DNA of 64,000 nucleotides, taken from assembly GCA_965200625.1 (NCBI GenBank), contig OZ241375.1, positions 8,234 to 72,233 on the forward strand, in the 5' to 3' direction. Below are positions 5,181-20,726 of the stretch, piece after piece. This DNA is from Dehalococcoidia bacterium (GTDB lineage Bacteria > Chloroflexota > Dehalococcoidia > Bin125). Both the position numbers and the translations under genes were made by a program. Numbering within the stretch: position 1 is the first letter of the stretch; the number at the start of each line of letters is the position of its first letter. The notes below the pieces were generated by a model. That model saw only the letters and a list, made by a program, of their open reading frames with translations, ran no database searches and was not told the origin of the DNA.

Positions 5181-6392
5181 ATGGCCGGTCCGTTGGCTGG
5201 GGTGCGTGTCTTTGATCTGACGCTATGGATGGTCGGGCCGTGGGCGTCGATGCAGCTGGGCGCGTTGGGCGCGGATGTGATTCATATTGAGCAGCCAGGC
5301 GTGGACCCGCGCACGTTGGGCGCGGGCGTGCCGCCGGCGATCAATGGCACCTCGGTCGGCTACATCACCTGGAACATGAACAAGCGCGGACTCTTCCTCG
5401 ACCTCAAGTCGCCGGCTGACCGCCAGACCGCCTACGAGCTGCTGCAAACCTGCGACGTGTTCCTGATCAACATGCGGCCCGGCGCGGCGGAGCGGATGGG
5501 CGTGGGTTACGAACAGGTCGCGGCGGCGAATCCGAACATTGTCTACACCGCGATCACCGGTTGGGGCGAGGTCGGCCCGATGCGCGACAAGCCGGGCGCG
5601 GATGTGCAGTGTCAGTACTTCACCGGCTTCTGGTCGGTGAGCGGCAAGCGCGGCGGCTGGCCTGAGGTCTACCGCCACTTCACGCAGATGGACGCGAGCA
5701 CCGGCAACGTCGCCGCGCAGGCGGTGCTGATGGGTCTGCTGGCGCGCAAGCGGACGGGCCGCGGGCAGCGCATCCACGTGGGGATGCTGCGCGCCGGGAT
5801 GGCGCTCCAGAGCGGGAGGATCGCGGAGTATCTGGCCAGCGGCGTCCAAGCGCCGCCGTTGGGTTCGGCCGGCTACGCCGCCGCGCCGGATCAGGCGTTT
5901 CAGTGTCAGGGCGGCGACTGGATCGGCGTCGCAGCGACCTGCGAGTCGGAGTGGCGGCGGTTGTGCGAGGCGCTGGCCGCGTCGGAGGCGGAAGGTCTGG
6001 ACGACTTGGCGTCTGATCCCCGATTTGCGACAAACCTGGATCGCGTCGCCCACCGCGACGCGCTGGCGGCGATCTTGCAGAACGCCTTCGCGCAGCGGCC
6101 GCGGCATTACTGGATGCTGCGCCTCGCCGACGCGGGCGTGCCTTGCGGCTATCCGATTGCGTTTGAGTCGCTCCAGCATCACGCGCAGGCGATTGAGAAT
6201 GGCTATCTGCGCGAGGTGACGACCTCAGGTTGGGGCGACGTGTGGACGGGCGGGCCGCCGTGGACGTTGTCGCGCACGCCGGCGCGCTGGACGGGCACGC
6301 CGCTGCCGGGCGAGCACACGGGCGGCATCCTCGACGAGCTGGCGCAGCGGCAGGCGGCGGTTGCAGAGCCGACGCCGGTGATCGGCGACTAG
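5181..6392 (+). CDS. CoA-transferase family III (CaiB/BaiF-like)
   Basis: ORF track. MAGPLAGVRVFDLTLWMVGPWASMQLGALGADVIHIEQPG...INMRPG is a canonical family-III N-terminus. Confidence 0.9.
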   Translation: MAGPLAGVRVFDLTLWMVGPWASMQLGALGADVIHIEQPGVDPRTLGAGVPPAINGTSVGYITWNMNKRGLFLDLKSPADRQTAYELLQTCDVFLINMRPGAAERMGVGYEQVAAANPNIVYTAITGWGEVGPMRDKPGADVQCQYFTGFWSVSGKRGGWPEVYRHFTQMDASTGNVAAQAVLMGLLARKRTGRGQRIHVGMLRAGMALQSGRIAEYLASGVQAPPLGSAGYAAAPDQAFQCQGGDWIGVAATCESEWRRLCEALAASEAEGLDDLASDPRFATNLDRVAHRDALAAILQNAFAQRPRHYWMLRLADAGVPCGYPIAFESLQHHAQAIENGYLREVTTSGWGDVWTGGPPWTLSRTPARWTGTPLPGEHTGGILDELAQRQAAVAEPTPVIGD

Positions 6393-6393
6393 C

Positions 6394-7563
6394 GTGCCCG
6401 GTCCGCTGGAGGGTTACCGCATCATCGAGATCGCCGAAGGCGTCGCCGGCCCGTACACGGCGATGTCGCTGGGCGACGCCGGCGCGGACGTGATCAAGGT
6501 CGAGCCGCCGACGGGTGATCGGGCGCGCGGCTGGGCGCCGCCGGTTGAGGGCGGCGGCTCGGCGCTGTTCCAGGCGCTCAACCGCAGCAAGCGCGGGATC
6601 ACGCTGGACTGGTCGTCCGAGCGCGACATTGAGATCGCGCAGCAGTTGCTGGGTAGCGCCGACGTGGCAATCGTCGACAAGGCCGGCCTGCCCGCTCCTC
6701 TGCGCTGGGAAGCGCTGGACGCTCCGGGACTAGTCTACTGCGCGCTCTCCGGATTCGGGCCGCGCGGGCCCTGGCGGGAGCGGCCGGCGTCCGAGCTTGC
6801 GGCGCAGCTGGCCAGTGAAGCGACGGCGTCGCTGGGCAGCATTGGAGAGGAGCCGGTGCGGCACGGCGGCGATATCGGCTCGATGTACGCCGCCAACTAT
6901 GCGATTCAGGCGATCTGCGCGGCGCTCTACGCGCGCGACGACTCCGATCCGTCCGCGCCGACGGGCGGGCAGCGGATCGAGGTCTCGTTGTTCGGCAGTC
7001 TGCTAGCGATGCGCTCGACGCTCTGGGTGGCGCTCTCCAATCCCGATGAATGGTGGGGCTTTCACCTCGATTCCTACGTCAAGCCGCCCGATCACGGCTA
7101 TCAGTGCCGCGATCTGCCGATCTACTTCTCGCTGGCGCGCATTCGCGGGGATGCGTTTGAATCGTTGATTGACGAGTTGGGTATGGACTGGGCGCGGGCG
7201 CATCCCGACTTCGCGCGGCTGCGCACGGACGGGGCCGGCGGCGCGGGCCGCTATGCGGCGGAGCTCAAGCAGCTCTGGGAGCGCGGGTTCTCGAACTTCG
7301 ACGCCGAGCGAGTGATCGAGATCGTCGAGCGGCACGGCGGCTGGGCCTTCTCGATGCACGACTACGAGCGGCTCAGCCGCGATCCGCAGGTGGCGGCGGT
7401 GGACGCGATTATCGAGGTGGAGCAGGGCGACGGTTCGTCGCTGCGACAGGTTGCGCCGCCGTGGGACTTTGCCGGGACGCCGGTCGCGGCGCCGCGTCCC
7501 GCGCCCGCGCTGGGCGAGCATCAGCGGGAGGTGCTGGAGGAGCTCGACGTTCTGCGCCGCTGA
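6394..7563 (+). CDS. CoA-transferase family III (second copy)
   Basis: ORF track. MPGPLEGYRIIEIAEGVAGPYTAMSLGDAGADVIKVEPP. Confidence 0.9.
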   Translation: MPGPLEGYRIIEIAEGVAGPYTAMSLGDAGADVIKVEPPTGDRARGWAPPVEGGGSALFQALNRSKRGITLDWSSERDIEIAQQLLGSADVAIVDKAGLPAPLRWEALDAPGLVYCALSGFGPRGPWRERPASELAAQLASEATASLGSIGEEPVRHGGDIGSMYAANYAIQAICAALYARDDSDPSAPTGGQRIEVSLFGSLLAMRSTLWVALSNPDEWWGFHLDSYVKPPDHGYQCRDLPIYFSLARIRGDAFESLIDELGMDWARAHPDFARLRTDGAGGAGRYAAELKQLWERGFSNFDAERVIEIVERHGGWAFSMHDYERLSRDPQVAAVDAIIEVEQGDGSSLRQVAPPWDFAGTPVAAPRPAPALGEHQREVLEELDVLRR

Positions 7564-7571
7564 CTAGCTGA

Positions 7572-8018
7572 TTAGCTGCGGGCGGGACGGAAGACGGGCA
7601 GCGTGATCTCGTCGTTGACTTTGCGGAAATCGACCTCGACCGCGAGGTCGCAGCTGACGTCCCGGTCTTCGATCCCGACCAGCGTCGAGTACATATAGGG
7701 GCCTTCTTCGAGCTTGATCAGCGCGACGGTGTAGGGGTACTCGTCCGGCGACCAGCCGGGGAAGTACTGCTGCCACATCCGGATCCACGACCAGACGGTG
7801 CCATGCCCGGAGATGGGGCGCCACTCCCAGTCGTCCTGCAGACAGCGCGGACAGGCCTCGGCCGGAGGGAACCAGGGCAGGTCGCAGATGTTGCAGAACT
7901 GGATCTGGAGGATGCCCTCGCGGCAGCCGTCCCAGAAGGGCTTGGTCAGGCCCAGCACGGGGGGCAGCGGCTTGTCGTAGCTGTGTCCGGCGGGTTGGTC
8001 GTCGGTGGAGGTGGTCAT
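7572..8018 (-). CDS. Zn-ribbon/OB-fold DUF35 protein (partner of the thiolase-like protein)
   Basis: The likely start is MTTSTDDQPAGHSYDKPLPPVLGLTKPFWDGC. CxxC...CxxC zinc ribbon (CNICDLPWFPPAEACPRC). Overlaps the upstream stop (ATGA). Confidence 0.8.
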   Translation of the reverse strand: MTTSTDDQPAGHSYDKPLPPVLGLTKPFWDGCREGILQIQFCNICDLPWFPPAEACPRCLQDDWEWRPISGHGTVWSWIRMWQQYFPGWSPDEYPYTVALIKLEEGPYMYSTLVGIEDRDVSCDLAVEVDFRKVNDEITLPVFRPARS

Positions 8019-9193
8019 CGGTCGTCTCGCTTCAGGATGTGGCCGGTGGCGAGCGGGGCGGCGCAGGCGTAGAGGCCGTACTGCGCGTTGTGAACCTGCC
8101 GCTCGCCGCATTCCTGGCGCAGCTGGCGGACGGCCTCGACGTGCAGCGCCCAGCCTTGCATGTAGGACTCGCTGGTGTGGCCGCCGCCCGTGTTGAGCGG
8201 CAGCTCGCCGCGCAGGCCGATCCGCTCTGGCGTGATCCAGTCGCCGCCCGCGCCGCGTTCGCAGAAGCCCATCCCTTCGAGCGTGAACAGCATCGTCGGG
8301 GTGAAGTTGTCGTAGAGCTGGGCGAAGGCGAGATCCTCGCGCTGCGCCTCGGAGACGGCGAACAGGTCGTCCGCGATCTGCGACATCGGTTCGTGCCAGA
8401 AGTCGTCGGCGACGTAGACAGGGGTGATGTCGGAGGCCTGCGAGGTGGCGTGGATCAGGACGGGCGTGTGCTTGAGGTCGCGGGCGCGCTCGGCGGAGGT
8501 GACGATGAAGCAGACGCCGCCGTCGTTGATCAGGCAGTAGTCGAGCAGGCAGAGCGGCTCGGCGATGAAGCGGGCGGCGTGGTAGTCGTCCATCGTGATC
8601 GGCCGCTGCATGACGGCGTTGGGATTGAGCGCCGCGTTGGCGCGGTTGGAGATTGCCAGGTGGCCGAGCGCCTCAGTCGTGGTGCCGTAGCGGTACTGGT
8701 GGCGGCGGAACATCATCGAGGTCACCGCGCCGGGCGAGGTCATGCCGTAGGGCGCTTCAAACATCGCCTGGGTGGAAATGCCGAGATTCTCGCCGCCGTA
8801 GCGCGCGCCGGCGGAGAGGCCGTTGTTGCCGTAGATGCAGGAGACGACGTCGGCCAGCCCGTTGGCGACCGCGAGCGCGGCGTACTGCAGGGCGATGCCG
8901 GACTGACGGCCCTCGCCGGGCAGGACGTTGACGAAGCGCGGATGGCGCAGGCCGATCATCTCGCACATCCGCCCATAGTGGGGCAGCCGCGAAACGATCA
9001 CGCCGTCCACGTCAGTGCGCCTGAGGCCGGCGTCGCGCAGCGCCTCACGAAAGGCGATCAGCCCCAGCTCATAAGCGGAGCGTTCCGGGTCCAGGTCACG
9101 GTAGATAGCGCCAAACTCAGTCGTGCCCACCCCAACAATGGCGGTCTGGTCCTGCAGGTTGCGCAAGGCGCTGCGGTCGGGTTGAGTTGTCAT
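8015..9193 (-). CDS. thiolase-like (SCP-x/nonspecific lipid-transfer type) protein
   Basis: The likely start is MTTQPDRSAL at ~9193. Thiolase fold (TAIVGVGTTEFG...). The ORF-track N-terminal extension to 9427 runs through a repeat element and is rejected. Confidence 0.85.
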   Translation of the reverse strand: MTTQPDRSALRNLQDQTAIVGVGTTEFGAIYRDLDPERSAYELGLIAFREALRDAGLRRTDVDGVIVSRLPHYGRMCEMIGLRHPRFVNVLPGEGRQSGIALQYAALAVANGLADVVSCIYGNNGLSAGARYGGENLGISTQAMFEAPYGMTSPGAVTSMMFRRHQYRYGTTTEALGHLAISNRANAALNPNAVMQRPITMDDYHAARFIAEPLCLLDYCLINDGGVCFIVTSAERARDLKHTPVLIHATSQASDITPVYVADDFWHEPMSQIADDLFAVSEAQREDLAFAQLYDNFTPTMLFTLEGMGFCERGAGGDWITPERIGLRGELPLNTGGGHTSESYMQGWALHVEAVRQLRQECGERQVHNAQYGLYACAAPLATGHILKRDDR

Positions 9194-9254
9194 GATCGGA
9201 GTATAGGAAGGGCCACGGTCGCGGCCCTTGGTTGGGGTACGGTGCTGGGTGCTC

Positions 9255-9495
9255 AAGACTTCCCCCTTTGGGGGAGCGCTGACCACTTTCGTCATTGCCG
9301 CGCGCCGCCGCGGCAATCTCGATGCGTACAGCAGCGAGGTCCGTGCTCGACGCGGCGAGATACCCGCGACGTAGTCGCGGGTATGACGGGGGAGGGGGCG
9401 CGGGTATGACGGAGGAGGGTGTGGCAAGGGTGCGCGGCGACCCCGCTTCAGTCGCTGCGCGACAGCTTCCCCCCAGTGGGGGGCAGCGAGAGAGC
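9255..9495. repeat. composite REP/BIME-like repeat (hairpin units GTCATTGCCGCG..CGCGGCAATCTCG, ATACCCGCG..CGCGGGTATGACGGAGG, CCCCGCTTCAGTCGCTGCGCGACAGCTTCCCCCCAGTGGGGGG)
   Basis: Near-identical copies at 20775-20985. The element overlaps the 3' end of the CDS at 9448-10269. Confidence 0.8.
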
Positions 9496-10269
9496 CAGCG
9501 CCTCGAGGGCGGTTTGGAATTGGTGGCGGAGGGTTTGGAGGCGTTGGGGGTTGACTTGTTGGGTGGCGGGGTGGAACCAGGGTTCGCTGAGGTACCAGTT
9601 GCGGTTCATTTCGATTTGGATCCAGGGTGGGCCGCCTTCTTTGTAGCGTTGGCCGTGGCGTCGGGTGATGTGGCCGCCCTGGAAAGGGTCGTTGAGGTGG
9701 ATTTGGTCGGGAGGGCAGTGGAAACTTTGGCTGAGGGCTTGGGCGAGTTCGTGGAGGAGGGCGGCGGGAGCGGTTTGGCCGTTTGCGTTGCTGAGGCAGA
9801 AGCGCGGGCGCGGCTCGCCGGGGTGGGGCGCGATGGCGGGCGCGTACTCGGCCATTGAGTGGCAGTCGAGCGCCAGCCGTACCTCCGGGCGCGCCGCCAG
9901 CTGCTCCAGGCGTTGGTGATAGGGGCGCCAGTAGCGGGTCAGCAGGGTCTGCGTGAGGGCGGCGTCGGGGCCCGCGCCGTGCTTCCAGACGGGGACGCGG
10001 TCGGCGGTCAGCGACTTGACCACGCCATCGGGCTGCGCCGGCGGGAGCGCGGTCGGAGGGCGATTGAGGTCAACGACGGCGCGCGCGATGTCAGTCTGCT
10101 GGACGGCGGCGACGGCGCGGCCCAGGTCGTAGATCTCGCGCGTGCAAGCGTCGCCGTCGCTGAAGATGTCGCGCGGTCGGAGGGCGGAGTGGGGCGCGGC
10201 CTCGGGCGGGACGCGGTCGCCGCCGTGCGGGATCGAGAGCAGGATCGGTAGAGGCACGGCGCGGCTCAC
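9448..10269 (-). CDS. N-formylglutamate amidohydrolase (FGase) family protein
   Basis: ORF track. PILLSIPHGGDRVPPE resembles the N-terminus of the FGase/PF05013 family. The C-terminal ...GGKLSRSD is encoded by the repeat element. Confidence 0.65.
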   Translation of the reverse strand: MSRAVPLPILLSIPHGGDRVPPEAAPHSALRPRDIFSDGDACTREIYDLGRAVAAVQQTDIARAVVDLNRPPTALPPAQPDGVVKSLTADRVPVWKHGAGPDAALTQTLLTRYWRPYHQRLEQLAARPEVRLALDCHSMAEYAPAIAPHPGEPRPRFCLSNANGQTAPAALLHELAQALSQSFHCPPDQIHLNDPFQGGHITRRHGQRYKEGGPPWIQIEMNRNWYLSEPWFHPATQQVNPQRLQTLRHQFQTALEALALSLPPTGGKLSRSD

Positions 10270-10275
10270 TGAGTC

Positions 10276-11856
10276 TCACAGGGCCGGGTGCAGGCCGCTG
10301 GGGCCGGCGGCGGAGCCGTCGCGGCGCGGATCGGCGGCGCCCTGGAAGCCGTCCCCGCTCTGGCGGCGGAGGACGGCCTGGACGCAGCCGAGATAGAAGG
10401 CGTACGGGTCGAGCGGCTTGATCTGGTAGCCGGCGGCGCGCAGGCGCTCGGTAATCGCCGGCGCGAAGCGCTCCGCTTCGAGACTGACGAGGCCGTCAAT
10501 GCCGCAGTGCAGACGGGGCGCGTCAATGGAGGCGTCGAGCGGCGCGGAGCCGTCCACGACGCGGTTCAGCACCTGCGCGAGCGAGGAGAAGATGCGCTCG
10601 CTGCCGGGGCTGCCCAGGGCGAGCCAGGGCTGGCGTTCGCGGAAGACGATCGTCGGCGCGGCGGTGGACCAAGGCACCGCGCCGGGTCGCAGATAGTAGG
10701 GATGCGACGGCTCCGCCGTTTCCAGCGCGGAGAGGTAGTTGTTGTAGAGGAAGCCGAGGCCGTCGGCGGCGGCCTTGGAGCCGTAGACCAGCTCGATTGA
10801 CTGGGTGACGGCAATCGCGTTGCCCTCAGCGTCCATGACGGAGAAGTGCGTGGTCTCGCCGATGCCGTCGTGCTCGGGATCGATGGTGGGCAGGCTGGGG
10901 TCGACCTGATCGCGGATCGAGTCGGCGAGGCCGCGGGCGTAGGCGCGGCTGAGCAGCGTCTTGTTGCGCACCTGGGCGTAGGAGTTGGGGTCGAAGGGTC
11001 GGTCGATGCGGCGCAGGAAGGCCTTGCGCAAGGCCTCGGCGAGGAAGTGGACATTGGCGGGAGAGATCGTCGCCAGGGCTTGCGATTCGAGGTGGTTGAG
11101 CATCATCATCAGCAGGAGCAGAATGCGTCCCGCGCCGGGAGGCGGCATCGTGGCGAGGGTGACGCCGCGGTAGCGGCGGCGCAGCGGACGACGGACGATC
11201 GGCCAGGGGATGAGGGCGAGATCGTCGGCGCGGAGGAAGCCGTCGTGGCGGCGCATGTCGGCGTCGATCTGCGCGGCGACCTCGCCCTGGTAGAAAGCCT
11301 CGACGCCGAGGCGGGAGAGCAGCTCGAGCAGGTTGGCGAGGTCGGGCTGGCGGAAGCGGTCGCCGGGCGCGTAGGGCGTCTCGCCGTGCTTGAGGAAGTA
11401 GGCAGCGCCGGAGCGGCCGGCGATGCGGTTGAATTGCGGGAGCTCGCGCTCCTGCAGCTGGTGTTGGAGCGGGGTGATCGGGTAGCCGTCGCGGGCAAGC
11501 TCGAGGGCGGGGGCGAGCACGGCGCGCCAGGGCAGGCGGCCGTAGCGGGCGTGCAGCCAGGCGAGGGTCGCGGGCGTGCTCGGGACAGTGGTCGCGCGGT
11601 GGCCGAGCCGCAGTTCGCGGTCGCGCTCGATCCGTTCGGTGTGGGCCAGCGAGGGCACGCGGCTGGAGCCGTCGAGGGCGAACGTCTCGCCGCCGAGGTG
11701 CGCGAGGGCGACGGTCTGGCCGCCGAGTCCGCTGGCCTGCGGCTCGCAGACGCCGAGCGCGAAGCCGACGGCGCAGGCGGCGTCGGCGGCGTTGCCGCCC
11801 TCGGCGAGCATCCGCGCGCCGGCCTGCGTGGCGTGGGGGAAGGCGGAGGCGACCAT
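10276..11856 (-). CDS. ggt: gamma-glutamyltranspeptidase
   Basis: MVASAFPHATQAGARMLAEGGNAADAACAVGFALGVCEP is a GGT N-terminus, with the characteristic G-rich catalytic-region motifs further downstream. The start is chosen at ~11856 because the ORF-track start overlaps the upstream gene. Confidence 0.85.
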   Translation of the reverse strand: MVASAFPHATQAGARMLAEGGNAADAACAVGFALGVCEPQASGLGGQTVALAHLGGETFALDGSSRVPSLAHTERIERDRELRLGHRATTVPSTPATLAWLHARYGRLPWRAVLAPALELARDGYPITPLQHQLQERELPQFNRIAGRSGAAYFLKHGETPYAPGDRFRQPDLANLLELLSRLGVEAFYQGEVAAQIDADMRRHDGFLRADDLALIPWPIVRRPLRRRYRGVTLATMPPPGAGRILLLLMMMLNHLESQALATISPANVHFLAEALRKAFLRRIDRPFDPNSYAQVRNKTLLSRAYARGLADSIRDQVDPSLPTIDPEHDGIGETTHFSVMDAEGNAIAVTQSIELVYGSKAAADGLGFLYNNYLSALETAEPSHPYYLRPGAVPWSTAAPTIVFRERQPWLALGSPGSERIFSSLAQVLNRVVDGSAPLDASIDAPRLHCGIDGLVSLEAERFAPAITERLRAAGYQIKPLDPYAFYLGCVQAVLRRQSGDGFQGAADPRRDGSAAGPSGLHPAL

Positions 11857-11920
11857 CCCGCGCGGATCGGCTGCGTTGCGCTGGGGTTGACCGTCCGCCG
11901 CGCTGGGGCGGAAGCGGCCC

Positions 11921-14185
11921 TCAACTCGTTGCAGTCGCACGTTCGCTGTTCCTTCGGCGCGAGCGGCGGGGGCGCAGCTCGAGCAGCGTCTCCGCCAACA
12001 GCATCGCGCGTTCCACCAGCGAGTGGCGCAGGATGTACTCGTCGTCGGTGCGCGCGTCGCCGCCGACGGGGCCGAGCCCGTCAATGCGGGCGGCGCTGTC
12101 GGGCGCGAAGCAGATATCGGCGGCGGCCCAGCGGTGGCGGGCGGTGACGGGATGGCTGAGGTCGCGGGCAACGCTCTGGATCGTCTCGAGCAGGGCGCGA
12201 TCACGGTCGGTGGGCTGCAGCGGCGGGCGGCCGGGCCGCGCGGCGACCTGCATCCGCACGCCCGGCACCGTGCGCGCGTTGGCGATCCGTTCGACGTTCT
12301 GATCGAGCGGCGTCCCCGCGGCGGGGTCGGTGAAGCGCAGGATCAAGTCGGTCTCCGCCCGCCAGGGCAGGCGCGCGCCGCCGGCGTCGAAGCGGATGCG
12401 GGTGATGTGCGCGTGGACGCCGCCCTCGGGCTGCTCGGGCAGTGCCGGGTCGGTGTCGGCGTCGAGCGGCGTTGGGCCGCGGCTCAGCTCCTGCAGCGCC
12501 AGGATGCGGTTGCTGAAGTGGCGCAGGACCTGTTCGGCGGAGACGTCGCGGCGCTGGCGGCGGAAGGTGGATTCGAGGTGGTAGCGCTGCTCGCCGGCGC
12601 GGGCGCTGATCAGGGAGCCGTCCGGATCGCCGGATTTGAGGCCGATCACGTGGCGGGCGCGACGGGCGGCCGCGTCGATCAGCGACTGTCCGCCAGCGCC
12701 GTTGTGCGCGCCGTCGCTGGTGAGCAGCACGGCGACCCGCAGCTGGCGCAGACGGCGGATGTGGCGCAGCCCGCGCAGCGCCGCCAGGGCGACGGCGACG
12801 CCGCCCTTCGCTTCCGCCACGCCGGAGCCGTAGAGACGCCGGTCATCGGCGCGGAAGGGCGCCAATTCGCTGGTCGAGGCGCCGGTGTCCAGATGGCCGA
12901 GCAGCAGCACGTCGTCGGTGTCTTCGTGATGGTTGCGGGCGAGCAGGGCGTGGCCGAGCGCGACGCGGGGCAGGCGTTCGACACGGAAGTTGAGCGTTTC
13001 GAGCTGGCGCGCGATCCAGTCGCCGAGCTGGTTGACGCGGTCAACCGCGTCGGTCGGCGTACGGATTTCGACCATCCGCCGCACGCTGTCCTCGATCGTC
13101 GCGGCGCTGCTGCGGATGTGCGTGCGCATCCGCGCGCGGGGACGCTCGGTCTGGTTGGCGGCGGCGTCCGCCTGCTGCGACTCGCGCAGCCGCTCCGCGC
13201 CGAAGTAGCGGATTGCGGCGACGTCGAGCATCCGGTTGATCAGCCCCTCGTAGCTGTAGCCGGCAGTCTGGGCGGCGTGGACGTAGGTGCCAGTCAGGCC
13301 GAGCGAGGCCATCGAGTTGATTTCCAGGATGTAGGGGCGGTTCGCGGCGTCGAGGCGCAGATCGACGCGGGCGAAGTCGTAGAGCTCGAGGCTGCGGAAG
13401 GCGAGCCGCGCGAGCTGCTGCAGCTCGGCGGTCTGCTCATCGCTCAGCGGGGCCGGGCAGAGCTTCTCGCGCGGGCGGCGGAGCTTGTCGCTGTCGGTCT
13501 GAATCGCGTTGGGATCGCCTTCGAGGTCGATCTCGACGATCGGCAGCACCTCCGGGTCGCCGTTGCCGAGCAGGCCAATCGCCAGCTCGCGGCCGGCGAT
13601 GAACTCCTCGACCAGCACGTGCTGGCCAAACTCGTTGATGATCGTCGCCACCGCCTCGCGCAGATCGGTTTCGTTCTCGACGATCCGGATGCCGTAGGAG
13701 ACCGCCTCCATCTTGGGCTTGACGATCAGCGGATGCTCGGGCGTGCAGACGAGGTCGGCGAAGACGTCGTCGACGGAGGCGAAGTTCCAGAATTTGGCGG
13801 TCGGCAGGCCGGCGGCCTGGAACATGATCTTGGCGATCACCTTGTCGAGCGCCATCCCGTGCGCCTGCGGGCCGGAGCCGACGTAGGGCACGCCGAGCAT
13901 CTCGAGCATCGCGGGCAGGTGGGTGTAGCGCGAGACGCCCTGGATCCCGTAGGCCATGTTGAAGACCATCCCGGGCCGCTCGCCGGCGAGCACGCGGGGC
14001 ATGAAGTCCTGCAGGCGTTCGACGATGTGCATGTTGCCGTCGATGATCCGCACGGTGTGCCCGCCCGCCTCCAGCGCTCGCGCCACGCGCTCGACGGTGC
14101 GCGGGTTGTAGCGCTCGCGGTTCTGAGGGCCAAAGACATTGATCACCCCGCTCGCATCACGGTTGTGGACAATGGCGACGCGCAT
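11921..14185 (-). CDS. fusion protein: N-terminal D-Ala-D-Ala-ligase-like ATP-grasp domain plus C-terminal M20-family metallopeptidase (ArgE/DapE/CPG2-like)
   Basis: Start MRVAIVHNRDASGVINVFG, with a GGGGAAGG SD-like sequence upstream. The C-terminal domain has LLLGHLDTGAS...GVAEAKGG, as in M20 peptidases. Confidence 0.8.
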   Translation of the reverse strand: MRVAIVHNRDASGVINVFGPQNRERYNPRTVERVARALEAGGHTVRIIDGNMHIVERLQDFMPRVLAGERPGMVFNMAYGIQGVSRYTHLPAMLEMLGVPYVGSGPQAHGMALDKVIAKIMFQAAGLPTAKFWNFASVDDVFADLVCTPEHPLIVKPKMEAVSYGIRIVENETDLREAVATIINEFGQHVLVEEFIAGRELAIGLLGNGDPEVLPIVEIDLEGDPNAIQTDSDKLRRPREKLCPAPLSDEQTAELQQLARLAFRSLELYDFARVDLRLDAANRPYILEINSMASLGLTGTYVHAAQTAGYSYEGLINRMLDVAAIRYFGAERLRESQQADAAANQTERPRARMRTHIRSSAATIEDSVRRMVEIRTPTDAVDRVNQLGDWIARQLETLNFRVERLPRVALGHALLARNHHEDTDDVLLLGHLDTGASTSELAPFRADDRRLYGSGVAEAKGGVAVALAALRGLRHIRRLRQLRVAVLLTSDGAHNGAGGQSLIDAAARRARHVIGLKSGDPDGSLISARAGEQRYHLESTFRRQRRDVSAEQVLRHFSNRILALQELSRGPTPLDADTDPALPEQPEGGVHAHITRIRFDAGGARLPWRAETDLILRFTDPAAGTPLDQNVERIANARTVPGVRMQVAARPGRPPLQPTDRDRALLETIQSVARDLSHPVTARHRWAAADICFAPDSAARIDGLGPVGGDARTDDEYILRHSLVERAMLLAETLLELRPRRSRRRNSERATATS

Positions 14186-14299
14186 GAACACCTTCCCCTG
14201 AGCACTGGCCGCAATCAGCGCGTCCGGCGCACTGCGGGCACTGTATGAGCAGAGTGCAGCCGCAACTAGCGGCCCATGTAATATCTGGCTCCCTGCCCA

Positions 14300-14480
14300 G
14301 CGCTCTCCAGAGAGGGAGCGCTGACTTCCGTCGTTCCTGCGAACGCAGGAACCCATCCGGCGTAGCGCTCAGGCGCTCACAGTGGGCAGCCCGCACGGTG
14401 ACCGGATCATTCGTCTGGGTTCCCGCTTTCGCGGGAACGACGGAAGGGGGTGAGCGGAGAGATGATGGGGGGGGGGGTGC
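14300..14480. repeat. REP-like hairpin repeats (CGTCGTTCCTGCGAACGCAGGAACCCA; TGGGTTCCCGCTTTCGCGGGAACGACGG) ending in a G11 homopolymer (14467-14477)
   Basis: Inverted repeats are readable. The G-run lies ~65 bp upstream of the FN3 gene start codon. Confidence 0.75.
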
Positions 14481-14543
14481 TACCGTGCATTGACGGATTA
14501 TGGCGGCTGACCTGCTTGGGGTTGGCGTGGAAAGGGTTGGGCT

Positions 14544-16780
14544 ATGCGGCTCGTGCGACTGTTGGTGGGGTTGGCGGCGCTGGTGGCGGTTTTGGCGGGC
14601 GGCTCGCTGGCGTTGGGGCAGACCTATGACGCGGGGCTGAACGCGAGCGTATCGGGCACGTATGTGCACGTGACCTGGAACGGCGACGTGGACGCGCCAG
14701 GGGGAGAGCAGGCGACCGGGTTTGCGCTGCAGCGGGCGGTCGCAGGGACGGAGCTGGGCGAGTGCAGCGACGCTCCGAGCGCGAGCGTGAGTCGGTTCCC
14801 GGAGTCGGGAGAGCTGAGCAAGGACGACTTCCGGAACTACACCGCAGTCGCGCTGACGCCGGGACAGAGTACACCTTCCGGCTCTGCGGGGCGTACGGGA
14901 GCAACGATACGTCGTACGCCATTCAATCGGTGAACGCCACGACGACCAGTCCCGCCGCCCTCGAGGGGCTCACCCTGGAGAAGATGGGCGGCAGCGTGCG
15001 GCTCAGCTGGAACGAGTACTCGAACGCTGACGGCGAGACCGCAGACCGTTACCGCCTCAATTGGGGACCGCTGGACACCGCCGCCAGCGGCGATGCCCAG
15101 TACCGGCGCATCCGGGAGAGCCGGGCGACCAAGGCGCAGGACGACATCTGCGACGCCGACGGCCTCTGCGCCATGAACATCATCGGCTTGACGAACGGAA
15201 CCGCGTACGGGTTCTGGGTGTTCGCGACCTACGCCGGACAAGGCGGCGGTCATGCCGCGGAGACGGAGCCGCGGACGGAGACGCCGGAGCTGCTCGAGCT
15301 GAAAGGCTTGACGCTCAGCGGCACGGCGGACGGCAAGCTCCTGGTCGAATGGGCCAGTGGTCCGAGTGGGACACAGCACTACCACGTGCGCTGGAAGGAA
15401 ACCGGCAGCATCGGCTGGCAGGGCATCATGCTGGACAAAGACGAGCGCAGCGTGGAGCTCGGCGGGATCACGCTGGGACACGACGTCTCGGTGGAAGCGG
15501 AAGCGCTGGTCGCCCGCAACCCGAGCATTGTCGCGGCGCGGGCGGAGGGCGAGACCTCGGCGCACATCGCGGTCAGCGCCAGCGCCGAGGCGCGGACCGG
15601 CACGCTCCACGTCGCCTGGGAGGTGCCGGACGACGTGGATCTGAGGAACGACTGGGGCGTCAACCGCTGGTCGATCACCTGTAAGCCGACGGATCCGGCG
15701 CACGGGTCGGGCGGCGGCAACATCAACCCGCCGGCGGACCATGATCACACGCTGCCCGTCCTGCCGATCGTGGAGCATCAGGTCACGATCAAGGGGCTGA
15801 CCTCCGACAACCGAGTGGTGGCGATGGGCAGCGCGACCGGCACGCCGAATCCGCTGCCGACGGCGCCCGCGATCGTGCCGCTGGGCGCGGTCACGACGAC
15901 GACGGTCGCCGCGGAATTCCCCGCAGTCCCCTACGATCCCGAGAATCCCGACAACCCCGAGGCGGGACCCAGCGTGCCGCCCGGCATTCGGGTTGAGTGG
16001 GAGTTGCCTGCGGGCGTCGCCGCCAATGACGTCAGCGTCTGGCGGGTCTGTGTGGACGGGCTGTGCTACCCGAACAATACGGTGAGCTCGGGGAGCACCC
16101 TGCGCGTGGTCTGGATTGGCTGCACGGAGGACGCCAACGAGATCTGCGACCCGGGTGAGCACGTCGTCAGCCCGAATCATCCGATTCAGATGAACACCTG
16201 CCACGAGATCGAGGTCACGGCCCTGAACCAGCACGAGCAGGTGCTGACACAGGGCACGGGCGAGGGCTGGGTGCTGGATCACAACGGCAACCCACCCGCC
16301 TGCGCCCCAGCCCCGCCGGCAGACGAGGAAGAAGAAGCCGAGCCGGGCGGCAGCGGCAACAACGTCGGAGGCGGCGGTGACAGCGGTGGAGGCGGTAACA
16401 GTGGCAACACGTACACGCCGCCGACGTCCAACTACGTACCGCAGTCCGCGTCGCAGCCGACGCCTGCGCCGCAGCCGGCACCCAAGTTAGCGATTGAAAC
16501 GATTGATCTGAGCCTGAGCTCACAGACGACCCTGCTGCGGGAGGTCGTGACGGCGACCATCGCGCTGAGCACCAGCGCCGGCGCGGCCATTGACGATACG
16601 GTCATGATCGATGTCAGCGGCGATCTGAATCTGCGCGTGCTGGACGTTGATCTGGAGGCGGGCGTTGCGTCTACCAACGGTGAGGTGACGGTGAGCTTTG
16701 AGGTTGTCGGCGGCGGTGGCTCGTCGACGATTACGGCGATGGTCGGCGATGACGATGATCCGGTGACCGCCTCGGCGTAG
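14544..16780 (+). pseudogene. large secreted fibronectin-type-III repeat protein (signal peptide, multiple FN3 modules, Gly/Pro-rich region), interrupted by a -1 frameshift at ~14861
   Basis: ORF 14544..14933 (frame 0, signal peptide MRLVRLLVGLAALVAVLAGGSLALG) and ORF 14762..16780 (frame 2) overlap. The FN3 consensus ...ALTPG|TEYTFRLCGAYGS is restored if one G is added to the GGG run. Confidence 0.7.
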
Positions 16781-17717: not shown

Positions 17718-20700
17718 ATGCGGGGCTCCGATTTCCGATCTCTCTTCCCGATGGGGCGCTGTGCTTCCTTGTTCCTGCTGGTTCTGCTGGCGGTTGGGGG
17801 TGGGCTGAGCCTGGGTTCGCTGCCGGCTGGCGCCCACACGAGCAGCAACCACGGCTACGTCACGCTGCTCGAGACGACGATGGTTGCCAAAGAGGAAAAT
17901 CTTGGGGCCCGGATCGGCCACGTTCGAGATAACGGTGCTTTGGCGGCAAAGACTTTCATTTATAAGGGGATCGAATATCACATTGACGGTATGTACGAGG
18001 ATACACAGGGTGAGGATACATTTAAATTCAGGACAACAAGGCCGCCTTCCACCAACTCGGACATCGGTCTGACGGAGGTCAACAAACTCAAGATTGAGAT
18101 CGATGGCAAGACCTTTGAAGGAGGATTTACGGCAGATACCTTCAGCACGAGGTACACACAGGCCGACAAGGGGTTAGATCTCTCAGACAACAAGACCGAA
18201 GCCACGAAGGCGACCGTCAAGATCAGCACGAAGGAGGTCCACCACGTCGCGCCTACCAACATTGCGGCTACCGCGCAGGGGACCACGACGCTCAGAGTAA
18301 CGTGGAACGACCCCCCCCGGGGCGACGGGCTTTCAGATCAGGCATAAGGCCACGAGCACCAGTACCTGGGGCTCCTGGTCGACGGCCACATTGTCAAATC
18401 CGAGTGACATTACGGGCCTGACGAGGGGCACGTCGTATAACATCCAGGTGCGGGCGGGCACCAACTCGGAGCCGGGGAACTGGGGCGCCGGGATCACGGC
18501 GTCGACGCCGACCCTGGACGCGCCCACCGGCGTTGCGGCGACGTCGCCTTCTTCAAGCCAGCTCACGGTCACGTGGAACGCTGTGACCGATGCGGACAGC
18601 TACCAGGTACGGTACAAGGCGTCGGGGACCAACAGCTGGGGGCACTGGGGAACGGCGACCTCGCCCACACCATCAACAACCTGGCGGCGAACACGCAGTA
18701 CGACATCAGCGTGCGGGGGCGGGACGGCAGCGACGCGGGCGATGCCACGACAATCATGAACGTGAGGACTTTGCGGCTGGCGGCGCCGGGCAACCTGGCG
18801 GCGACGTCGTCCGTCTCCACCCAGCTGGTGGTCACGTGGAGCGCCGTGACCAACGCGGCCAACTATCAGCTCCGGTACAAGCTCAACAGCAGCAGCAGCT
18901 GGGGGAGCTGGGGGACGGCGACCTCGCCGCGCACGATTACGGGTCTGACGGCGAACACGCAGTACAACATCGAGGTGCGGGCGCGGGACAGCAGCAATAG
19001 CGAGGGGGACGCTGCCGCCGTCACGGCGAGGACGCTGCTGGCTCCGCCGACCAATGAGGCGGCGGCGGCGGCGGTCGCGACCGAGCTGACGGTGACGTGT
19101 ACGGCGGTGAGCGGCGCGGCCAGCTATGAGGTGCGGCACAAACGATCCAGCACGAGCTCCTGGGGGAGCTGGGGAGCGGCGTCCTCGCCGCACGAGATTA
19201 CGGGGCTGACGGCGAATACGGAGTACGACATCGGCGTTCGGGCGAAGGACAGCAGCAACAACGCGGGGGAGGTGGCGAGCATCACGAACGTGCGGACGCC
19301 GCTGTCGCCGCCGACGGGGTTGTGGCATCCGACGGATACGGATGACTATGACCCGCGGTTCGGCAGATTCGGCAGCGGCTGGTGGGATGAGGACATGATC
19401 ACCGTGTTCTGGAACGCGCTGACTGATGCGGCCTCCTATGAGATGCGCTATCGCGCGGTCAAGGGGACGCAGGAGGATACCTGGTCGGCCTGGGCGGACG
19501 CCGATGAGTTTGACCGCGAGCATGGGCTGACGCTGTCTGATCTGTTCCCGGCGTACGCGGGGATCGAGTACGAGATCGAATTGCGGGGCGTGCATAGCAG
19601 CAACCGCAAGGGCGAGGCGACGTCGTACACGGCGCAGACGAAGTACAACGCGCCGACGGCGGTGTCCAATGTGCGGGTGGCGTCGAACGACGGGGAGCTG
19701 GCGGTCGCCTGGACGCCGAGGCGCCACAATGAGAGTTGGAGCGTGCGGTCGGAGCGGTAGGATGTGAACCAGATCGCGTCGGTGTCGGCGTCCGCGCCAC
19801 ACACGACGCTCACGGAGCTGGAAAGTGGCGTGGCGTACGGGATCCGGGTGCAGGCGCAGCGGGATCTGGGGACGGATCCGTTTGGCACACATCACATCGT
19901 GACCACGGGTTGGAGCGCCGTTGTCTACAGTATGCCAATGACGGCGCCGGGGTCGCTGACGGTGACGCCGGTGACGACTCGGGATCCGGACTTGATCTAT
20001 CGGCCACGGTTCCCGCTGCTGCCGCCGGGCACGCCGCTGCCGCCGCTGCCGGGGCTGCGGCCGGATGACGAGATTGTGAAGGACGGAGAGGCGCTGGAGA
20101 TCAGTTGGGAGGCGGTCGCGGGCGCGGCGACGTACGGCGGCTATCAAGTGGCGTTCCATCCGGGGAACAAAGCGCCGTCGAGCTGGCATACGCTGCTGCT
20201 GGAGGGGACGTCGTTCACGGTCGCGGGGGTGGATCCGTTGTATGTGGTGAGCGTGCGGGCGGTGGCGCAGATGCCGGATGATTCGATAGTCTACGGGCCG
20301 TACGCGAGCACTAGCGGCGTGATCGGGGTGAATCCGTCACCCAGTCCGGGTCCCAGTCCCAGCCCGTCGCCGAGTCCCAGCCCGAGTCCGAGTCCGCCAC
20401 AGGAGCCGATTGTGAGTCCGCATCCACCGTCTGGGGTGCGGCCAGTGCAGCCGAGTCCGCCGGTTGAGCAGCCGGGGATCAAACCGCCGACGGAGGGCAA
20501 GCCGCAGGAGCCAGCGGAGAGGGAGAGGCGGACTGCGCCGCCGGGCGCGCCGCCGCCGGACGACGGGGTGGGGATTAATCCACCGGGTCCGCCGCCGGGG
20601 CCGCTGCCGGAGCCGCCGGAGGACAGGCCGCCACCGAACGATGAGCCGCGGCCGGGTCTGCCGGGTCCGCCGCCGGATGACCGAGCGGGCATCTTCGGCC

Positions 20701-20726
20701 TCCTGTCGGGGGGGATGGTGCACTAG
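17718..20726 (+). pseudogene. very large secreted FN3-repeat protein (signal peptide, ~7 FN3 modules, Pro/Ser-rich C-terminus). Disrupted by a +1 insertion in a C8 run (18311-18318), a -1 change at the CCC run at 18664-18666, and an in-frame TAG at 19758-19760.
   Basis: Consecutive ORFs 17634..18347 (frame 0), 18391..18759 (frame 1), 18573..19760 (frame 0) and 19764..20726 (frame 0) all carry the same FN3 periodicity (L.V.W...YQVRYK...WG.WG...ITGLTANTQY.I.VRA). The domains continue seamlessly across each break. Confidence 0.7.

Follow-up and report, generated by a model that had tools for sequence, protein, structure and literature searches.

We describe here a cassette of three genes on the minus strand of a 64,000-nucleotide stretch of DNA from a Dehalococcoidia bacterium (Chloroflexota; contig OZ241375.1), which we refer to as the window. 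The genes encode a fusion of an ATP-grasp ligase domain with a domain of the M20 metallopeptidase fold, a member of the gamma-glutamyltranspeptidase (GGT) family and a member of the N-formylglutamate amidohydrolase (FGase) family (Table 1). They are packed as tightly as a first-pass annotation of the sequence had stated, with short or overlapping junctions: the GGT gene overlaps the 3' end and stop region of the fusion gene by 20 nt, and the FGase gene starts 6 nt past the GGT stop. The fusion gene proposed there is real as well, although the 755 aa given for its product count the stop codon; the 754-aa protein has an identical entry in public gene calls, where the 273-aa FGase-family product is likewise present. 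The ATG of the fusion gene stands directly 3' of the Shine-Dalgarno-like GGGGAAGG. The GTG start of the GGT gene was placed by homology, as orthologues begin MxLxxxEGxFxP, and has GAAGGA upstream.

Pfam confirmed all four domains named in the first-pass annotation, namely Dala_Dala_lig_C (aa 122-320 of the fusion, 2.2e-33), Peptidase_M20 (aa 427-735, 9.9e-14), G_glu_transpept (PF01019, 5.5e-116) and FGase (PF05013, matched over the full length of the protein, 3.2e-47). These E-values, together with the cross-phylum conservation described below, are far beyond chance. A plus-strand gene for a secreted protein begins at 14544, beyond the 358-bp intergenic region upstream, and a perfect hairpin that lacks a T-tract marks the probable end of the operon downstream. 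A scan of positions 7400-14800 found neither a sigma-70 consensus promoter nor an intrinsic terminator. The three genes form a self-contained operon.

Conservation of the cassette across lineages

The three window proteins were compared by tblastn with 82 fetched loci. Their co-occurrence in relatives, on which the first-pass annotation had staked its prediction, is well supported: the same order of fusion, GGT and FGase genes, mostly abutting or overlapping, recurs in at least eight lineages and is kept in 43 loci. The carriers comprise Dehalococcoidia (Chloroflexota), Gemmatimonadota, Binatia, Nitrospinota, Nitrosomonas (Betaproteobacteria), Gammaproteobacteria and, among the Thaumarchaeota, Nitrosopumilaceae and Cenarchaeum; N. 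aestuarii Nm36 is a cultured carrier. At least 57 loci hold the pair of fusion and GGT genes with a near-full-length GGT of the cassette type. All-versus-all clustering of the flanking open reading frames (ORFs) yielded three broadly conserved families only, namely those of the cassette itself, with 79 loci for the fusion, 63 for GGT and 43 for FGase; many contigs end early. Within the window, tblastn found no further paralogues of the three proteins.

The fusion family is large: of the candidates scored, 1553 proteins reach E<=1e-10, and a scan of contigs from one genome per species gave at least 582 genomic hits. The nearest relatives of the window cassette, at 78-80% identity, are metagenome-assembled genomes (MAGs) of Dehalococcoidia and of sponge-associated Ca. 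Poriferisodalis. Conservation differs by part: identity is 56-91% for the ATP-grasp domain, 50-82% for GGT, 38-66% for FGase and 25-43% for the M20 domain outside the window's own class. Judged by record titles and general knowledge of the groups, the hosts appear to be overwhelmingly marine or saline. In one related Dehalococcoidia genome (L062:8001-11673, 87% identity in the ATP-grasp domain) the M20 domain is reduced to fragments, as are GGT (45 aa) and FGase (73 aa), which suggests that this cassette is decaying or partly deleted.

Literature searches on the gene combination, on GGT and Ddl in Nitrosopumilus, on ATP-grasp enzymes with compatible solutes and on the osmolyte N-acetylglutaminylglutamine amide (NAGGN) found no description of the cassette; an earlier computational mention is possible.

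The four domains of the cassette

The fusion protein consists of a Ddl-like ATP-grasp domain (aa 1-335), a helical linker and an M20 domain that resembles CPG2 (aa ~340-740), and its AF2 model has a pLDDT of 87.2. Both by sequence and by structure the closest relatives of the N-terminal domain are Ddl and Van enzymes. It shares 25-28% identity with Ddl, and Foldseek matched it to DdlB and DdlA (2dln and 8evx) with a TMt of 0.84-0.85. Kinship with cyanophycin synthetase, MysD or RimK was considered and rejected, as matches in Pfam, NCBIfam and the PDB were to Ddl and Van enzymes only; in Pfam the fusion matched neither PF08443 nor PF14397. To compare the machinery for ATP, Mg2+ and phosphoryl transfer, we used the DdlB set K97, K144, E180 region, K215, R255, D257, E270 and N272. 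The fusion family keeps it: K115, K156, E193, E200, R273, D275, E288 and N290 are present in 193/193 relatives and K234 in 192/193. Also retained, as E24, is the counterpart of DdlB E15, the Glu by which Ddl binds its first substrate at the alpha-amino group.

What has changed is the substrate side. The triad that binds the first D-Ala is broken, with Val in place of Ddl S150 in 178 of the 193 relatives and Leu or Met in place of Y216, and the contacts to the second D-Ala are altered from S281/L282 to Gly and Ser or Thr. The Ddl loop H63-E68 is swapped for an invariant YGIQGxSRYTH, and the C-terminal motif reads NSMASLG. Residues specific to this family are conserved as strictly as the catalytic ones (Y79, Q82, R86, Y87, H89, Q229 and M292 in 193/193; S291, S294 and G299 in 192/193). 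From this comparison the domain is predicted to line its pocket with a new, invariant, cationic and aromatic surface (Y79, Q82, R86, Y87, H89). The loss of the D-Ala-binding residues together with the retention of ATP, Mg2+ and catalytic residues points to a live ligase that is not a cell-wall Ddl. The domain has all residues predicted to be needed for forming an acyl phosphate and joining it to an amine, and its residues predict a catalytically active ligase.

Further evidence agrees with this. NF002378, the best Ddl model in NCBIfam, reaches 152.8 where the cut-off is 243, and every Ddl or Van model stays below its threshold; no mur or ftsQ gene occurs in any neighbourhood cluster of the fusion loci. 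The fusion also occurs in 12 thaumarchaeotal loci, including Nitrosopumilaceae and Cenarchaeum, and these archaea have no murein. The first-pass annotation had named a bona fide Ddl at the N-terminus as the finding that would overturn it; the changed D-Ala residues, the low model score and the murein-less hosts speak for a different enzyme.

A profile built from 27 of the C-terminal domains aligns end to end with CPG2 (1cg2; E 8.8e-31, positions 21-365), and Foldseek gives the same match (E 1.5e-28, TMt 0.73), so that the catalytic fold and the dimerisation subdomain are both retained. Across the 193 family members we examined the positions of the dinuclear zinc ligands of CPG2 (H112, D141, E176, E200 and H385) and of its general base, E175. 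His is kept at the H112 site in 159/193 sequences and otherwise replaced by Asn, Gln or Ser; the D141 site holds Glu in 158 and Arg in 18. At the E176 site Thr, Ser or Ala is found and at the E200 site mostly Lys (151/193), with Glu or Asp in 0/193 at either, whereas the H385 site is Arg in 128, Gly in 30 and His in just 7. The position of the general base varies between Asp (103), Glu (35) and Gly (32), and is Gly in the window protein. A complete set of zinc ligands is present in none of the 193. Lys and Arg at zinc-ligand sites mean that the domain cannot act as a metallopeptidase, and we regard it as a pseudo-peptidase, predicted to be non-catalytic; its weak conservation is consistent with such a role. 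The covalent fusion of a ligase to a peptidase seen by the first-pass annotation thus loses its second enzyme, since the zinc ligands are incomplete in all 193 relatives. Several Arg and Lys residues (R354, R358, R474, R477, K517, R653 and R685) are conserved, and the domain may serve carboxylate or glutamate recognition, dimerisation or partner docking. A Gemmatimonadota MAG (L013:8997-10169) carries an in-frame stop inside the M20 part, which may reflect a pseudogene or an assembly error.

The second gene belongs to the GGT family by its PF01019 match and its nucleophile, as the Thr of the ETTHF motif is present in 57/57 cassette GGT sequences. The name gamma-glutamyltranspeptidase from the first-pass annotation holds this far, but not for a canonical enzyme. 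The window protein scores 354.6 with TIGR00066, just under the cut-off of 357.85, and neither it nor its orthologues have a signal peptide. The lid loop of E. coli GGT is missing, and the length at this place is that of the lid-less Bacillus enzymes. In the E. coli enzyme N411, Q430 and D433 bind the gamma-glutamyl moiety at its alpha-amino group; here they are altered to Glu (53/57), Tyr (53/57) and Ala or Ser (50/57), and G484 is replaced by Ser. Among the contacts to the alpha-carboxylate (R114/S462/S463) the S-S/T pair is kept, and the Arg lies two positions off, in a DGSSRxP motif as in 2nlz-type proteins. On these grounds the cassette protein is predicted to be a cytoplasmic, non-canonical GGT-family enzyme. 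The canonical N411/Q430/D433 residues are confined to a secreted GGT paralogue, which has a signal peptide and ~31-33% identity to the cassette GGT. In some Nitrospinota and one Calditrichota MAG this paralogue is located directly 5' of the fusion (Table 1); two of these loci, L031 and L070, have the secreted paralogue and no GGT or FGase of the cassette type.

Similarly, the third protein keeps its family and loses its usual name. Membership in PF05013 was correctly recognised in the first-pass annotation, yet the HutG equivalog TIGR02017 scores 102.8, far under its cut-off of 278.75, and no hut genes (hutH/U/I) occur among the neighbours of the cassette loci. A core of motifs is conserved in 43 FGase orthologues, comprising PHGG (H15), D40, R63/D67/N69/R70 (DxNR), DCHSM (H137) and E220 (QxE). 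A protein of this family has been proposed to be a gamma-glutamylglycine hydrolase (PMC6529630).

Exchangeable partners and genomic surroundings

The partners of the fusion can be exchanged. The first-pass annotation had missed this exchange, and also the wider pairing of GGT with ATP-grasp and the ion-channel genes nearby. In eight loci from the Bacteroidota/Ignavibacteria group, Clostridia and Latescibacterota, GGT and FGase are missing and a class-I glutamine amidotransferase (GATase) of 193 aa abuts the fusion on either side. It matches PF00117 (1.6e-26), its best NCBIfam match is GMP synthase subunit A, and its Cys (GLCLG) and HPE motif are intact. The gene is absent from the window, where GGT and FGase hold its place. 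The M20 domains of the GATase-linked fusions, which make up two distinct subclades, are just as degenerate. As GATase takes the place of GGT and FGase, the chemistry common to the partners would be to attack an amide bond of the glutamine or gamma-glutamyl type.

A search with the ATP-grasp domain alone against 1.84 billion representatives gave 446 proteins at E<=1e-30 and a wider range of architectures: the M20 fusion, stand-alone proteins (~325-360 aa), tandem ATP-grasp domains, 7TM_transglut-ATP-grasp proteins and fusions to a radical-SAM aminomutase of the KamA family. In these sister clades the partner is a 7TM_transglut protein, a KamA-type aminomutase joined to the ATP-grasp domain, or both. 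In all five distinct sister-clade clusters that we read (seven loci), a GGT gene adjoins the ATP-grasp gene, along with the 7TM module. These GGTs lack a signal peptide, are non-canonical in their own way (S409, Q411, Y430, T433, S484) and are 35-39% identical to the window GGT, compared with 31% for the canonical paralogue. The best NCBIfam match of the 7TM protein is 'osmotic stress tolerance membrane protein RloB', at a sub-threshold score and for the 7TM part only. In the KamA fusions (~690-740 aa) the CxxxCxxC motif is intact, and Arg occupies the position of D293 of lysine 2,3-aminomutase in 16/16. This Asp binds the epsilon-amino group of lysine and is Lys in glutamate 2,3-aminomutase; an Arg here makes an acidic substrate such as glutamate likely in the KamA branch. 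The constant core is thus the cytoplasmic non-canonical GGT with this ATP-grasp clade, and the M20-like, FGase, GATase, 7TM and aminomutase modules are interchangeable. The recurrent clusters of GGT, 7TM_transglut (RloB-like) and Ddl-like ATP-grasp genes, in this order, in which the 7TM and ATP-grasp genes are sometimes fused and the ATP-grasp domain is sometimes fused to KamA (L083-L090), look like an undescribed system of their own.

Genes for ion transport recur around the cassette. Within 8 kb, 29 of 77 loci carry genes for MscS (two families), MgtE (with an MgtE_N/CBS protein), CorA, CDF or a Na/H or Na/Ca exchanger, adding up to 65 such genes over the 851 kb of flanking sequence. We take this density to be about an order of magnitude over expectation, a rough estimate from typical gene counts and not a computed value. 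By lineage, loci with such neighbours number 15/16 in Nitrospinota, 2/2 in Binatia, 5/11 in Gemmatimonadota, 3/6 in the Bacteroidota/Ignavibacteria group, 2/7 in Nitrosomonas and 2/12 in ammonia-oxidising archaea (AOA). Some arrangements are apparent co-operons, as with fusion-GGT-FGase-MscS-CBS-MgtE in Binatia and MscS-MscS-CorA-DUF502-GATase-fusion in Ignavibacteria, and an MscS-type gene also lies near the degraded Chloroflexota cassette of L062. The cassette shares an island with RimK, a RimB-like Zn_protease and a gene of the AstE/AspA family in Nitrospinota and in one Nitrosomonas. These islands (Table 1) as a whole bring together CDF, the AstE/AspA-family hydrolase, RimK, the RimB-like retropepsin, MgtE, the MgtE_N+CBS protein and one or two MscS genes. 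RimK/RimB and RloABC handle poly-glutamate, and P. aeruginosa needs Rlo for tolerance of low osmolarity (PMC12239564).

The immediate surroundings in the window are of a different kind. The next gene downstream is thiolase-like (ATG at 9295) and part of an unrelated group of CoA-transferase and ChsH2-like genes. The thiolase-like and ChsH2-like genes were considered as members of the cassette and rejected, as they are not conserved with it and a hairpin lies between. In this region (5181-9295) two tandem family-III CoA-transferase genes on the plus strand face genes for a ChsH2-like OB-fold/zinc-ribbon protein and a thiolase-like lipid-transfer protein on the minus strand, a set typical for the degradation of steroid or branched-acid side chains and unrelated to the cassette. 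On the other side, several fibronectin-type-III (fn3) proteins are encoded on the plus strand (14544-16780 and 18573-20726). The signal-peptide ORF at 14544-14933 overlaps, in another frame, the 672-aa fn3 ORF at 14762-16780, which may be due to a frameshift or a mis-called start. Such eukaryote-like fn3 proteins fit a host-associated life as a sponge symbiont.

Perfect short GC-rich hairpins occur in both flanking intergenic regions (14298-14438 and 9294-9384), with the arms GTTCCTGCG/CGCAGGAAC, GTTCCCGC/GCGGGAAC and ATACCCGCGAC/GTCGCGGGTAT; a direct repeat, CCGTCATACCCGCG, stands immediately 5' of the last of these. All lack a T-tract and could be terminators or REP-like elements, and a guessed consensus of the upstream hairpins revealed no repeat family across the window. 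The GC content of the cassette (10001-14000) is 0.71-0.73 compared with 0.65-0.69 in the flanks and ~0.69 in the window, which is compatible with lateral acquisition and not decisive.

Table 1. Coordinates of the cassette and its flanks in the window, and of related gene clusters in other loci
Feature	Position	Strand	Basis or remark
Fusion gene, 754 aa, ATP-grasp + M20	14185..11921	minus	ORF list, Pfam, NCBIfam
ATP-grasp ligase domain of fusion	13181..14185	minus	residue comparison, 193 relatives
M20 (CPG2-like) domain incl. dimerisation/lid subdomain	11924..13180	minus	profile match to CPG2
GGT-family Ntn hydrolase, 554 aa from GTG 11940	10276..11940	minus	PF01019, orthologue starts
Codon of GGT Thr nucleophile	about 10852-10854	minus	ETTHF motif
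FGase-family (PF05013) amidohydrolase, 273 aa	9448..10269	minus	PF05013
Divergent intergenic region, 358 bp, 5' of cassette	14186..14543		sequence, inverted repeats; with SD-like GGGGAAGG and three GC-rich hairpins
Upstream GC-rich hairpins	14298-14323, 14333-14352, 14419-14438		inverted-repeat search
Perfect hairpin, 11-bp stem, 3-nt loop, 64 nt 3' of FGase stop	9360..9384	minus	inverted repeats
Nitrospinota/Nitrosomonas islands	L028:509-6828, L046:391-6818, L031:3075-5482, L052:13175-17252		
Secreted GGT paralogue	L031:6093-7844, L040:6049-7800, L065:4084-6018, L070:1658-3301		
Clusters of GGT, 7TM_transglut (RloB-like) and Ddl-like ATP-grasp	L087:4418-8086, L086:5419-9139, L083:4477-9142, L088:3263-9730		among L083-L090

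Proposed function and comparison with known systems

The reading that we favour, tentatively, is that of a cytoplasmic operon that makes a small glutamate-based amide at the expense of ATP and turns it over by hydrolysis, with a tie to osmotic and ion homeostasis. By linking a carboxylate with an amine, the ATP-grasp domain would produce a di- or oligopeptide of the gamma-glutamyl or N-acyl-glutamate type, and the inactivated M20 domain may act as a dimerising scaffold of the ligase that recognises glutamate or another carboxylate. GGT would cleave or transfer a gamma-glutamyl (glutamine-type) amide of substrate or product, FGase would cleave a bond of the N-acyl-glutamate type, and ligase and hydrolases together would set the size of the pool. 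The compound itself could serve as an organic solute or counter-ion in the osmotic or cation homeostasis of marine and saline prokaryotes. Glutamate is favoured as its basis by the hydrolase-type families involved, which are all directed at this residue: CPG2 takes off Glu from the C-terminus, the substrate of FGase is N-acyl-Glu, and the gamma-glutamyl amide is the target of both GGT and GATase. The link to osmotic and cation homeostasis draws on the gene neighbourhood, the ecology of the hosts and the RloB-like module of the sister systems.

Several observations weigh against this proposal. The specificity for glutamate was inferred from family-level precedents and the sister clades and not from the window protein, and a catabolic or salvage route would be an equally good fit for a single ligase accompanied by two or three proteins of hydrolase type. 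The GATase that replaces GGT and FGase is nearer to ammonia-delivering subunits of the GuaA/TrpG type than to the C26 gamma-glutamyl hydrolases. The association with ion-transport genes is concentrated in Nitrospinota and phylogenetically non-independent; such neighbours are missing from all six Chloroflexota loci in which the fusion is intact, the window among them, and among the AOA loci they are found in just the two counted above. No osmo-related riboswitch was found near the cassette in an Rfam scan of the whole window, nor a recognisable promoter. Extended to eight diverse loci, the Rfam search showed neither a riboswitch (c-di-AMP, Mg, glutamine) nor any further RNA by the cassette, its sole match being a tRNA in L019. 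The marine bias could also stem from lateral transfer within shared habitats and not from function.

A broader version of the proposal, which we regard as possible but doubtful, sees the cassette as one branch of a large unrecognised class, built on the pair of cytoplasmic non-canonical GGT and 'YGIQG/NSMAS' ATP-grasp with swappable third modules (the inactivated CPG2 domain, FGase, GATase, the RloB-like 7TM protein or a glutamate-type 2,3-aminomutase). This branch would make a new peptide or amide solute derived from glutamate or beta-glutamate, with GGT in a biosynthetic and not a degradative role. Such a solute would be common to all three guilds of marine nitrifiers (AOA, ammonia-oxidising bacteria and nitrite-oxidising bacteria) and sponge symbionts, and GGT would work as a transpeptidase or nitrogen donor.

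The main rival, in our view unlikely but serious, is a glutamine-dependent amidoligase in which the partner, GGT or GATase, hydrolyses Gln and passes ammonia or a gamma-glutamyl-N intermediate on to form a carboxamide from a carboxylate phosphorylated by the ATP-grasp domain, comparable to carbamoyl-phosphate synthetase or the amidation step of NAGGN. The M20-like domain would then dock the glutaminase or bind the acceptor. The likeness of the adjoining GATase to GuaA/TrpG, with Cys and HPE motif intact, favours this rival, as does its translational coupling with the fusion in eight loci, two subclades and both gene orders. With glutamine, GGT and GATase alike pass through a gamma-glutamyl-enzyme; this shared chemistry, together with the CarAB precedent for pairing ATP-grasp with GATase, supports the idea further. 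We know of no GGT-family protein that acts as an ammonia-channelling subunit, however, and the FGase gene would be left unexplained. Moreover, the sister clusters (5/5 read) use GGT and never GATase, and the conserved Ddl-like E24 and Arg273 suggest an amino acid rather than NH3 as the nucleophile. The constant partnership of GGT and ATP-grasp across clades would also suit a glutathione-like cycle of gamma-glutamyl peptides with a redox or thiol function, which we consider quite unlikely. Here the ATP-grasp domain, like the synthetase domain of GshF, would extend a GGT-made gamma-Glu-X, and GGT or GATase with the M20-type domain would mirror degradation by GGT and yeast Dug2/Dug3. There are precedents, since a Ddl-like ATP-grasp is the glutathione synthetase of GshF and GATase with an M20-domain protein replaces GGT in the DUG pathway, and Na/H-exchanger genes (of the Kef-type family) are among the neighbours. 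Yet no GshA-like, Cys-related, thiol reductase or peroxidase gene recurs in the neighbourhood, the alpha-amino pocket is unlike that of glutathione-cleaving GGTs, and the links to MscS and Mg2+ transporters would go unexplained.

We consider it improbable that the cassette breaks down or salvages an exogenous compound of the gamma-glutamyl or N-acyl-glutamate type, taken from seawater or a sponge host, with the ATP-grasp domain activating or re-ligating it in an ATP-driven step. Such a role would account for the two or three hydrolase-type components per ligase, for hosts that include sponge symbionts scavenging host compounds, and for the catabolic neighbours in the window (CoA-transferases, thiolase-like). 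No transporter for an organic substrate recurs beside the cassette, however, all cassette proteins are cytoplasmic, and chemolithoautotrophic nitrifiers (AOA, Nitrospina, Nitrosomonas) are among the major carriers. Modification of a protein or peptide tag, in which the ligase adds Glu or another residue in the manner of RimK, LysX or TTL, GGT and FGase act as erasers and the M20 domain binds the protein, is more improbable still. A marginal TTL match of the fusion in Pfam (E 0.005), the adjacency of RimK/RimB in Nitrospinota and the LysX/LysK carrier-protein system, where ATP-grasp and M20 proteins are paired, speak for it. Against it, no gene for a small carrier or target is conserved with the cassette, the nearest fold and sequence are those of Ddl, a small-molecule ligase, PF08443 is not matched, and the GGT and FGase families act on small molecules; for the peptide tags or cyanophycin-like polymers suggested by the first-pass annotation we found no evidence. 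Finally, an ordinary cell-wall D-Ala-D-Ala ligase fused to a peptidase, for peptidoglycan synthesis or recycling, has next to no credibility left. The best matches of the N-terminal domain, which are Ddl enzymes, and the name D-alanine-D-alanine ligase in some databases would favour it, but sub-threshold models, broken D-Ala sites, murein-less hosts and the missing mur/ftsQ context effectively refute this reading.

If the glutamate-amide proposal is true, the cassette represents an unnamed, conserved small-molecule pathway in marine nitrifiers and abundant sponge symbionts, which would yield a new compatible solute or gamma-glutamyl metabolite. It would also provide a first function for a cytoplasmic GGT subfamily and a clear case of the M20 peptidase fold reused as a non-catalytic ligase module. 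In public annotation the fusion is called 'M20/M25/M40 family metallo-hydrolase' or 'D-alanine-D-alanine ligase'; both names are misleading, the latter especially so in archaea without murein.

The domains of the cassette belong to known superfamilies, and each fails at least one defining feature of the named family, be it Ddl, M20 peptidase, GGT or HutG. With DdlB and DdlA the ligase shares the three-domain ATP-grasp fold, the residues for ATP, Mg2+ and phosphoryl transfer and the Glu equivalent to E15; it differs in Val and Leu or Met at S150 and Y216, the new YGIQGxSRYTH and NSMASLG motifs, the M20 fusion and the lack of mur context. The likeness to CPG2 (1CG2) extends over the catalytic and dimerisation subdomains and includes the HxD motif and xKGG loop, whereas Thr/Ser/Ala, Lys and Arg stand for E176, E200 and H385, Glu replaces the bridging Asp and the general base is variable (Asp, Glu or Gly). 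Compared with bacterial GGTs (E. coli Ggt, Bacillus GGT and YwrD/class IV cephalosporin-acylase-like proteins), the cassette enzyme has the PF01019 domain, the Thr in a TTH motif, the oxyanion Gly and the S-S/T pair, and resembles the Bacillus GGTs in lacking the lid loop. It departs from them in the absent signal peptide, the Glu/Tyr/Ala(Ser) pocket, the DGSSRxP motif and its fixed ATP-grasp partner. The FGase-family protein agrees with HutG in the full-length PF05013 match and the His/Asp/Glu/Arg core, and differs in its sub-cut-off score and the lack of hut genes.

As a system, the cassette resembles several known ones and is a member of none. The NAGGN osmolyte system consists of the GNAT-ATP-grasp ligase Ngg, the amidotransferase AsnO and an M42 peptidase. 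The parallel, which is an analogy only, with homology no deeper than the fold, lies in an ATP-grasp ligase for dipeptides that carries a second domain, an enzyme of the Ntn type for glutamine amides, a clan-MH fold and an osmotic link; in the cassette neither Pfam nor NCBIfam shows a GNAT, Asn_synthase or M42 domain, the M20 domain is inactivated and the ligase is Ddl-like. RimK/RimB and RloABC combine an ATP-grasp glutamate ligase with a retropepsin-like polyGlu peptidase and a 7TM inactive transglutaminase. With them the cassette has in common an ATP-grasp ligase with dedicated hydrolases, and its sister clades share 7TM_transglut with RloB. Its ATP-grasp domain is of the Ddl type and not of the RimK/ATPgrasp_ST type, however, GGT and FGase take the place of retropepsins, and no 7TM partner is encoded in the window. 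Gamma-glutamylation pathways (PuuA/PuuD, GlnA4-type) and the glutathione cycle (GshF, GGT, Dug2/Dug3) likewise combine an ATP-made glutamyl amide with its removal by a hydrolase of the GGT, GATase-fold or FGase family, and the cassette stands apart from them in using an ATP-grasp rather than a GS-like ligase and in having no amine-oxidising or thiol genes alongside.

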